224 nucleotides of DNA from Escherichia coli (GTDB taxonomy: Bacteria > Pseudomonadota > Gammaproteobacteria > Enterobacterales > Enterobacteriaceae), in the NCBI RefSeq assembly GCF_003334355.1, contig NZ_QOWP01000120.1; one strand, given 5' to 3'. The notes beneath the pieces were generated by a model. The model worked only from the letters and a program-made list of their open reading frames with translations, was not told where the DNA came from and did not search any database. The stretch's first letter is position 1, and every line of letters starts with the position of its first letter. Of the stretch, positions 1-224 are shown one piece after another. The translations under genes and the position numbers were made by a program.

Positions 1-16
1 AATTTGAGAGACTCAC

Positions 17-34
17 GAACAACTTTCGTTGTTC
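17..34 (-). other. Small spacer hairpin with GAAA (GNRA) tetraloop
   Basis: Perfect inverted repeat gaacaac (17-23) and gttgttc (28-34) around a 4-nt loop. In minus-sense RNA this is GAACAAC-GAAA-GUUGUUC, a 7-bp stem with a GNRA tetraloop. No U-tract follows in the transcript (next bases are GUGAGUCUCUCAAAUU), so it is not an intrinsic terminator. Confidence 0.5.
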
Positions 35-60
35 AGTGTTTCAATTTTCAGCTTGATCCA

Positions 61-75
61 GATTTTTAAAGAGCA
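61..75 (-). promoter_or_regulatory. Spacer boxA antitermination element (binding site for the NusB/NusE-containing rrn antitermination complex)
   Basis: Minus-strand sequence TGCTCTTTAAAAATC (+ strand gatttttaaagagca) contains the boxA core GCTCTTTAA, close to the rrn leader boxA TGCTCTTTAACAA. It sits immediately 3' of a hairpin in the transcript, the boxB-then-boxA order described for rrn leader and spacer regions. Confidence 0.7.
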
Positions 76-76
76 A

Positions 77-114
77 ATATCTCAAACATCACCCGAAGAT
101 GAGTTTTGAGATAT
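77..114 (-). promoter_or_regulatory. boxB-like stem-loop with UUCG tetraloop, upstream of spacer boxA in the transcript
   Basis: Minus-sense RNA AUAUCUCAAA-AC-UCAUC-UUCG-GGUGA-UG-UUUGAGAUAU. Outer stem is 10 perfect bp (77-86 with 105-114). Inner stem is 5 bp including one G-U wobble that pairs only in minus-sense RNA (it would be a C/A mismatch in plus sense). The stem closes a C(UUCG)G tetraloop (+ strand cgaa at 94-97). Confidence 0.6.
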
Positions 115-148
115 TAAGGTCGGCGACTTTCACTCACAAACCAGCAAG

Positions 149-224
149 TGGCGTCCCCTAGGGGATTCGAACCCCTGTTACCGCCGTGAAAGGGCGGTGT
201 CCTGGGCCTCTAGACGAAGGGGAC
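149..224 (-). tRNA. gltT|gltU|gltV|gltW: tRNA-Glu (anticodon UUC), complete 76-nt gene with encoded 3' CCA
   Basis: Reverse complement of 149-224 reads GTCCCCTTCGTCTAGAGGCCCAGGACACCGCCCTTTCACGGCGGTAACAGGGGTTCGAATCCCCTAGGGGACGCCA. It folds as a cloverleaf: acceptor stem GTCCCCT/AGGGGAC (7 bp), discriminator G, CCA; anticodon stem CCGCC/GGCGG with loop CTTTCAC (anticodon TTC, + strand gaa at 188-190); T-arm AGGGG/CCCCT with loop TTCGAAT. It matches E. coli tRNA-Glu as I remember it. The paralog cannot be resolved from 224 bp; the symbol lists the four E. coli K-12 copies. Confidence 0.95.

Follow-up and report, generated by a model that had tools for sequence, protein, structure and literature searches.

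The 224-nucleotide (nt) stretch of Escherichia coli DNA analyzed here (contig NZ_QOWP01000120.1; called the window below, always at its full length) is the central and distal part of a 16S–23S spacer of the Glu type, one that carries a gene for glutamate transfer RNA (tRNA-Glu), from a ribosomal RNA (rRNA, rrn) operon of E. coli or Shigella, read on the minus strand. We put the probability of this reading at roughly 97%. The locus as a whole is already known, a textbook piece of an rRNA operon. Its linker between tRNA-Glu and the boxB hairpin also contains a 25-nt hairpin (positions 142–118), which is a real, conserved, tRNA-Glu–linked RNA element and, as far as we found, an undescribed one. 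The evidence gathered here comprises the identity of the window, its genomic context, its copy numbers, its hairpins, and a long-range complementarity supported by covariation.

Identity and genomic context of the window

What does the window encode, and where in the genome does it belong? ARAGORN calls a single gene, tRNA-Glu with anticodon UUC, at positions 149–224 of the minus strand, the same coordinates that an initial annotation, made from the letters alone, had given it. The Rfam tRNA family RF00005 matches there with 60.1 bits against a gathering score of 29, and the tRNA is identical to that of the K-12 genes gltT, gltU, gltV, and gltW. By megablast, the window was matched in 5,425 of 5,426 complete E. 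coli genomes, with an identity of at least 99% in 1,510 records. Exact matches lie at the rrnG position of O157:H7 and other strains. In O157:H7 PV15-279 (100% identity), the window sits between 16S and 23S rRNA, all on one strand, and the operon is flanked by clpB and kgtP, which marks the rrnG position. On the minus strand of this exact-match locus, 16S ends 85 nt past window position 224, and the annotated start of 23S lies 45 nt past window position 1. The initial annotation had anticipated a spacer leading toward 23S, near-identical matches within rrn operons, and rRNA genes on both flanks, and the megablast search and the O157:H7 PV15-279 locus agree with it on all three. It also had 23S in the right direction, past position 1 on the minus strand, at a distance (60–80 bp) that proved too long.

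The median number of copies per E. coli genome is four for the tRNA-Glu segment and seven for the distal spacer (positions 1–148). All seven spacers of K-12 MG1655 were fetched: those of rrnB, rrnC, rrnE, and rrnG carry tRNA-Glu, the same four of seven that the initial annotation had named, and those of rrnA, rrnD, and rrnH carry tRNA-Ile plus tRNA-Ala. The window has every feature that defines a Glu-type enterobacterial spacer, namely a place between 16S and 23S on the same strand, a single tRNA-Glu, and occurrence in a subset of the operons. Nothing of substance weighs against the assignment, and two small reservations apply. The 224 nt include no rRNA gene, and the context is taken from identical loci in the database; furthermore, 10 of the ~37,958 matching places are plasmid-borne, so that a plasmid copy of an rrn operon is formally possible.

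Which K-12 operon does the window resemble most closely? The closest copy is the rrnB spacer (gltT to rrlB), identical at 76 of 76 tRNA positions and 147 of 148 spacer positions, with the same order of elements and the same distance from tRNA to 23S (193 nt). The sole difference falls in the tetraloop of hairpin 38–14, which reads GAAA in the window and GAGA in rrnB. Measured against the K-12 operons, the window is a mosaic, with a linker (positions 120–124) of the rrnB/rrnG type and a GAAA tetraloop (position 26) of the rrnC/rrnE type. Judged from sequence comparison, such spacer mosaics suggest gene conversion among operons. As for the K-12 spacers themselves, rrnG and rrnD share a variant that is 9 nt shorter just before 23S (alignment A1, columns 100–250), and rrnG has a boxB apex of its own.

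Two database entries with other taxonomic labels, L042 (metagenome-assembled genome of Oxalobacter sp.) and L048 (uncultured Desulfovibrio sp.), have a spacer identical or nearly identical to that of E. coli, which suggests that they are E. coli rRNA-operon contigs mis-binned into metagenome-assembled genomes.

The features of the window, in the order in which they would be transcribed, are as follows (RNA sense is the minus strand).

149–224, minus strand: tRNA-Glu(UUC) with encoded CCA (151–149), from ARAGORN, Rfam, and the RefSeq annotation of the matches
186–192, minus strand: anticodon loop CUUUCAC (192–186) of tRNA-Glu, with the anticodon at 190–188
116–148, minus strand: linker of 33 nt from tRNA-Glu to boxB (148–116)
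143–148, minus strand: single-stranded 3′ trailer CUUGCU between CCA and the linker hairpin, unpaired in the fold
118–142, minus strand: conserved linker (trailer) hairpin, stem 142–134 with 126–118, loop GUGAAAG at 133–127
76–115, minus strand: boxB hairpin of 40 nt with a UUCG-type apical tetraloop, from inverted repeat I1 and the fold
63–75, minus strand: boxA, UGCUCUUUAAAAA, by direct reading of the sequence
1–62, minus strand: stretch of 62 nt toward 23S (62–1), including hairpin 38–14
43–64, minus strand: distal segment of the leader strand of the pre-23S leader–trailer helix, from co-folding; its partner is in the 23S–5S spacer, ~3 kb downstream
14–38, minus strand: local hairpin within the leader strand, CAC-U-GAACAAC GAAA GUUGUUC GUG, from folds
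5–12, minus strand: second leader-strand segment, GUCUCUCA, whose partner is the GAGAG motif of the 23S 3′ trailer
1–71, minus strand: Rfam match to StyR-44 (RF01830), model positions 1–71 of 107

A conserved hairpin downstream of tRNA-Glu

Do the known elements of a spacer leave any part of the window unexplained? The initial annotation had answered that they do not, which was slightly overstated: the window hosts no undescribed "system," as it had said, but the linker does hold the undescribed 25-nt hairpin. The linker folds into this hairpin with the stem and loop listed above. The loop, GUGAAAG, and the anticodon loop of tRNA-Glu, CUUUCAC, are exact Watson–Crick complements, with no complementarity past the loop edges. 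Within GUGAAAG the cognate codon GAA is flanked by U on its 5′ side and by a purine on its 3′ side, an arrangement that resembles the way in which an anticodon loop or a specifier displays its triplet. Among distinct Glu-type enterobacterial linkers, which represent eight genera, the loop is invariant in 11 of 11 and the stem covaries. A total of 78% of the cells in these 11 linkers are paired, as opposed to 30–49% in slid controls; six of the nine stem pairs have changed on both sides; and none of 500 shuffles reaches the observed covariation.

How far does the element extend beyond the rrn operons of enterobacteria? A metagenome scan, anchored on the 3′ end of tRNA-Glu only, returned mostly tRNA-Glu genes outside rrn operons. 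Seven metagenome loci (L077, at 120–190; L081; L119; L124; L145; L156; and L176) have a stem–GUGAAAG–stem arrangement right after tRNA-Glu. These carriers, for which the loop itself was the selection criterion, are tRNA-Ala(GGC)–tRNA-Glu(UUC) operons without rRNA, in which the hairpin is followed by an intrinsic terminator. Their hairpins lie 8–10 nt past CCA, and their stems are entirely different from the enterobacterial ones. In the combined set of 17 sequences, 82.9% of the cells are paired (30–48% in slid controls), 10 of 10 pairs have changed on both sides, and RNAalifold independently recovers the stem.

The element also appears to keep company with a single kind of tRNA. A complement of the tRNA's own anticodon loop is present in 20 of 128 unique tRNA-Glu(UUC) trailers and in 0 of 230 trailers of other tRNAs, with a non-cognate background of 0.24%. 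The loops of the first hairpins in tRNA-Glu trailers match the anticodon loop bimodally, either over all seven bases or over four at most. Every carrier has the same GUGAAAG loop and the same anticodon loop, and nothing analogous follows any of the 230 other tRNAs. The only tRNA-Glu in an rrn context in the metagenome sample, L073 (ADGC01001322.1, ~8410–8434), has 16S 223 nt upstream and 23S 231 nt downstream; its spacer contains no GUGAAAG hairpin, nor a boxA recognizable by the criteria used. Because L073 is without the hairpin, the element is not universal in Glu-type spacers.

No Rfam family, T-box included, matches the hairpin in the window (E ≤ 1) or in the seven metagenome loci (at the gathering score). 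Nor did we find a paper on the hairpin motif or on the processing of the tRNA-Glu trailer, which is weak evidence of novelty because the rrn literature of the 1980s and 1990s is thinly covered.

Candidate roles of the linker hairpin

What might the hairpin do? The more conservative reading, to which we assign slightly less than an even chance, is that it is a processing or protection signal recognized by a protein or nuclease and that its complementarity to the anticodon loop is coincidental. A signal of this kind could position an RNase E cut after CCA, block 3′-to-5′ exonucleases, or bind another factor. Its location is suitable, 6–9 nt past CCA in both genomic contexts, where E. coli pre-tRNAs are cut endonucleolytically (PMC3378859), and the combination of a fixed loop with a variable stem is typical of hairpins that proteins recognize. 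The short trailer that separates CCA from the hairpin (143–148) is fairly conserved as CTTGC in the enterobacterial linker alignment (A2). By analogy with other E. coli tRNAs, in which RNase E cuts downstream of CCA (PMC3378859), this trailer is likely the endonucleolytic cut site from which 3′ maturation of tRNA-Glu starts. General positioning of a nuclease, however, would need no invariant 7-nt loop, and it would leave unexplained why the element occurs with tRNA-Glu only among 358 tRNA trailers. We know of no protein candidate for recognition of the hairpin.

A bolder reading takes the complementarity at face value. Here the hairpin would be an undescribed, tRNA-Glu–specific cis element whose loop pairs with the anticodon loop, in trans or at a stage when the tRNA has yet to fold completely, and which traps tRNA-Glu or, as a chaperone, aids its folding or processing. 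We consider this doubtful, and clearly less probable than recognition by a protein. The loop–loop contact could act as a chaperone for a tRNA that tends to misfold, set the order in which this tRNA is processed or modified, or keep tRNA-Glu sequestered. Several of the observations above argue for such pairing: the complementarity of GUGAAAG and CUUUCAC is exact and bounded by the loop edges; every pair of the stem covaries beneath a loop that does not change; both rrn spacers and tRNA-Ala(GGC)–tRNA-Glu operons, which are unrelated contexts, have the element after tRNA-Glu; and it is confined to tRNA-Glu(UUC) trailers (20 of 128 vs. 0 of 230), with match lengths of either seven or at most four bases. 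The nature of the tRNA counts in the same direction, as E. coli tRNA-Glu2 is the classic case of a stable inactive conformer and forms tight anticodon–anticodon complexes with tRNA-Phe, whose anticodon is GAA. Against pairing, the invariance of both loops leaves no variation in which covariation of loop and anticodon could show itself. GUGAAAG appears in 4.2% of dinucleotide-preserving spacer shuffles, so that complementarity alone is weak evidence. The absence of the element from 108 of 128 tRNA-Glu trailers, and from the rrn-context locus L073, means that it is not generally needed. Finally, a linker of 6–9 nt seems too short, on geometric reasoning, for a coaxial loop–loop helix in cis with a folded, L-shaped tRNA.

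Does the hairpin belong with the RNA elements that bind anticodons? What it has in common with kissing complexes, anticodon–anticodon complexes, and the T-box specifier is a 7-nt loop fully complementary to an anticodon loop. It differs from the T-box in having no T-box architecture and in lying downstream of the matched tRNA gene, not in a messenger RNA leader. The likeness to anticodon-binding elements is one of sequence complementarity only, and we do not place the hairpin among them.

boxB and boxA form the spacer antitermination signal

The linker is followed by elements that are better known, the spacer copy of the nut-like signal of rrn operons. A boxB–boxA(–boxC) set occurs both in the rrn leader and upstream of 23S (PMC6614797, PMC10250234), and the rrn boxA consensus is UGCUCUUUA (PMC6614797). 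In the window, the boxB hairpin (115–76) folds at −15.8 kcal/mol (z = −5.3). It comes in three sequence versions among the K-12 operons, each of which folds as a hairpin, and it is locally paired in ~20 of 22 species co-folds; across genera its sequence changes and its pairing is kept. The boxA that comes next, UGCUCUUUAAAAA at 75–63, fits the consensus UGCUCUUUA, is invariant across the seven K-12 operons, and is mostly unpaired in the 22 species co-folds (positions 75–66). From boxA to 23S, the seven K-12 operons are nearly invariant, whichever tRNA the spacer carries. The end of the spacer boxA reads AAAAA in E. coli and AACAA in Xenorhabdus, Photorhabdus, and Edwardsiella.

For the E. coli spacer boxA, binding of NusB/NusE and Rho-resistant elongation are attributed to Pfeiffer and Hartmann 1997 and Berg et al. 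1989, as cited in PMC6614797. We take boxA at 63–75 to be the site at which NusB/NusE(S10) loads to build the rrn antitermination complex, with the binding itself taken from the literature. The signal in the rrn leader (boxB–boxA–boxC, after promoter P2) has the same order of boxB then boxA and the same core, UGCUCUUUA. The conserved block right after the spacer boxA is the 5′ strand of the 23S leader–trailer helix, much as boxC is for 16S (PMC10250234, PMC6614797). The two blocks differ in sequence and in partner: the post-boxA sequence of the spacer, UCUGGAUCAAGCUGAAAAUU, has no relation to UCUGUGUGGG, the boxC of the leader, and its partner is the 23S trailer rather than the 16S trailer.

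Two resemblances of boxB apices to anticodons were set aside. In the Ile/Ala spacers of E. coli the apex UGCAAA is the complement of the tRNA-Ala anticodon loop UUUGCA, which we regard as chance, as other genera have GAAA, GAGA, and the like at this place. In the Glu-type boxB, the anticodon triplet itself forms part of the UUCG apex, which is simply a stable tetraloop and varies between genera.

A spacer of a different build was seen in Citrobacter amalonaticus S646 (L053, ~1540–1580, minus-strand orientation), where the 16S 3′ end, GGATCACCTCCTTA, is followed after ~29 nt by boxA. This spacer, without a tRNA and without a boxB hairpin, is either a tRNA-less variant or an assembly artefact.

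The stretch after boxA provides the leader strand of the pre-23S helix

How much of the window takes part in the helix that unites the ends of 23S? Co-folding of the two sequences that flank 23S yields this known helix and extends it into the window, where 11–5 and 64–43 pair with the 23S–5S spacer. Comparison was made over 58 loci, retrieved with a search pattern that demanded only TGCTCTTTAA and the start of 23S, from Escherichia, Enterobacter, Klebsiella, Citrobacter, Xenorhabdus, Photorhabdus, Dickeya, Edwardsiella, Mangrovibacter, Superficieibacter, Rheinheimera, and Arsukibacterium. UCUGGAWCAAGCUGAAAAUU and GAGUCUCUCAA are conserved over the 58 loci though they fall outside the search pattern; also outside it, GAGTCTCTCAA in segment 5–12 is conserved across Enterobacterales.

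The post-boxA block forms a duplex with its own trailer at −21 to −26 kcal/mol in 21 leader/trailer pairs (z = −4.1 to −7.9 vs. 200 dinucleotide shuffles per pair). Bases on the two strands have changed together between clades: leader GGAUCAAGC goes with trailer GCYUGAUAC, leader GGAACAAGC with trailer GCUUGUUC, and, in Arsukibacterium, leader AAUUUGGCAAGCUGAUGUA with trailer AAUAUCAGCCUGCUAAAUA, this covariation being judged from per-species duplexes and not from a formal alignment count. Placed on window coordinates, the 22 co-folds give one consistent layout, with a local hairpin at 115–76, a mostly unpaired stretch at 75–66, trailer pairing at 64–43, a second local hairpin at 38–15, and trailer pairing again at 12–5. 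Segment 43–64 is paired with the trailer in 14–22 of the 22 co-folds and segment 5–12 in 19–22 of the 22 species. The hairpin at 14–38, which is part of the Rfam StyR-44 consensus structure, is locally paired in 20–22 of the 22 species despite sequence differences at the genus level.

Leader–trailer helices around 23S are ubiquitous, found in nearly all bacteria (PMC11404451, PMC10250234). The helix traced here has the same long, covariation-supported complementarity around 23S as the known RNase III processing stems and does not differ from them in kind; it can be followed as far as the last bases of boxA, with the conserved local hairpin as an interruption. The canonical RNase III site adjoins the 23S 5′ end and lies outside the window. 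Because long 23S helices are well documented, the pairing is a confirmation and not a discovery.

StyR-44 and the leader strand

The same end of the window has been described under another name. Positions 71–1 of the minus strand match Rfam StyR-44 (RF01830) with 81.5 bits, against a gathering score of 54 (E = 3.5e-13). The match ends at the window edge, so that the window holds the first two-thirds of the model. StyR-44 was detected in Salmonella Typhi and E. coli as a 109-nt RNA that runs from boxA to the 23S 5′ end (PMC2943607); all seven operons have it upstream of 23S, and its discoverers state that it may be a metastable maturation intermediate (PMC2943607).

Could positions 1–71 instead be an independent regulatory small RNA (sRNA) with a function of its own, more than a leader strand or by-product? 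Such an sRNA is improbable in our judgment. The Rfam match does exceed the gathering score, the northern signals are regulated by growth rate in both S. Typhi and E. coli (PMC2943607), and the fragment has a reasonable local fold (−22.9 kcal/mol). That fold, however, reaches a z of only −1.8, a scan of the window found no promoter-like or terminator-like sites on either strand, and the discoverers themselves allow for a metastable maturation intermediate (PMC2943607). In the Rfam model the outer helix joins GCUGAAAAUU with AAUUUUCGC (window 43–52; L001, 5994–6003) and so uses the bases that pair with the trailer; as the same bases are used, the StyR-44 outer helix and the 23S trailer pairing are mutually exclusive. 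In every species examined, bases 52–43 have the 23S trailer as their partner, and covariation supports the pairing. The local partner AAUUUUCGC is not conserved in Xenorhabdus, Photorhabdus, and Edwardsiella, whereas the trailer pairing is.

Other readings and rejected candidates

A gene on the plus strand, whether a small open reading frame (ORF) or an antisense RNA, can be dismissed almost outright: there are three plus-strand ORFs of 20–26 amino acids, but they are at the minimum listed length, have no promoter-like site, and overlap the tRNA gene and rRNA-processing elements that are conserved as RNA structure, and the above-threshold Rfam matches are all on the minus strand.

The scan for promoters and terminators covered the window on both strands and found none; the weak spacer promoter Pi and the in vitro termination sites of PMC5179076 could not be placed in the window. 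Rfam hits to SNORD24, Plastid-psbl-rps4, mascRNA-menRNA, and Tymo_tRNA-like are far below their gathering scores and were taken as chance or as matches to parts of the tRNA. A 10-nt direct repeat present in two copies, D1, was likewise taken as chance. A stem enclosing the tRNA, seen by eye between AGCAAGGCGUC upstream and the tRNA 3′ end plus trailer, is absent from the minimum-energy fold, and the fold checked for it is no better than shuffles (z = −1.1).

A working model of the spacer

How would these elements act together? The whole window is transcribed within the long pre-rRNA, and general tRNA-processing nucleases would excise tRNA-Glu(UUC) from this precursor. The boxB hairpin and the single-stranded boxA would re-load or retain NusB/NusE and the remaining rrn antitermination complex, which would allow RNA polymerase to pass through 23S without Rho-dependent termination. 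The stretch from the end of boxA to 23S is the 5′ strand of the long pre-23S helix, pairing with the 23S–5S spacer once that is transcribed, and the helix would bring the ends of 23S together and form the RNase III substrate. The fragment from boxA to 23S, once freed, is the RNA catalogued as StyR-44. In this scheme the protein binding, antitermination, and cleavages would proceed as the literature describes them. The layout of boxA followed directly by the leader strand agrees with the current picture, in which the antitermination complex keeps the leader strand close to the polymerase until the trailer appears.

The tRNA, boxB, boxA, and the leader strand of the helix, which reaches up to boxA, make a complete functional map of the window. 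The main use of the initial annotation was that it correctly flagged a textbook locus, which is thereby not mistaken for a novelty. The linker hairpin is worth noting for work on the maturation of tRNA-Glu or on the function of rrn spacers. If it is true that its loop contacts the anticodon loop, tRNA-Glu would be a rare case of a tRNA gene that carries its own anticodon-matched partner.

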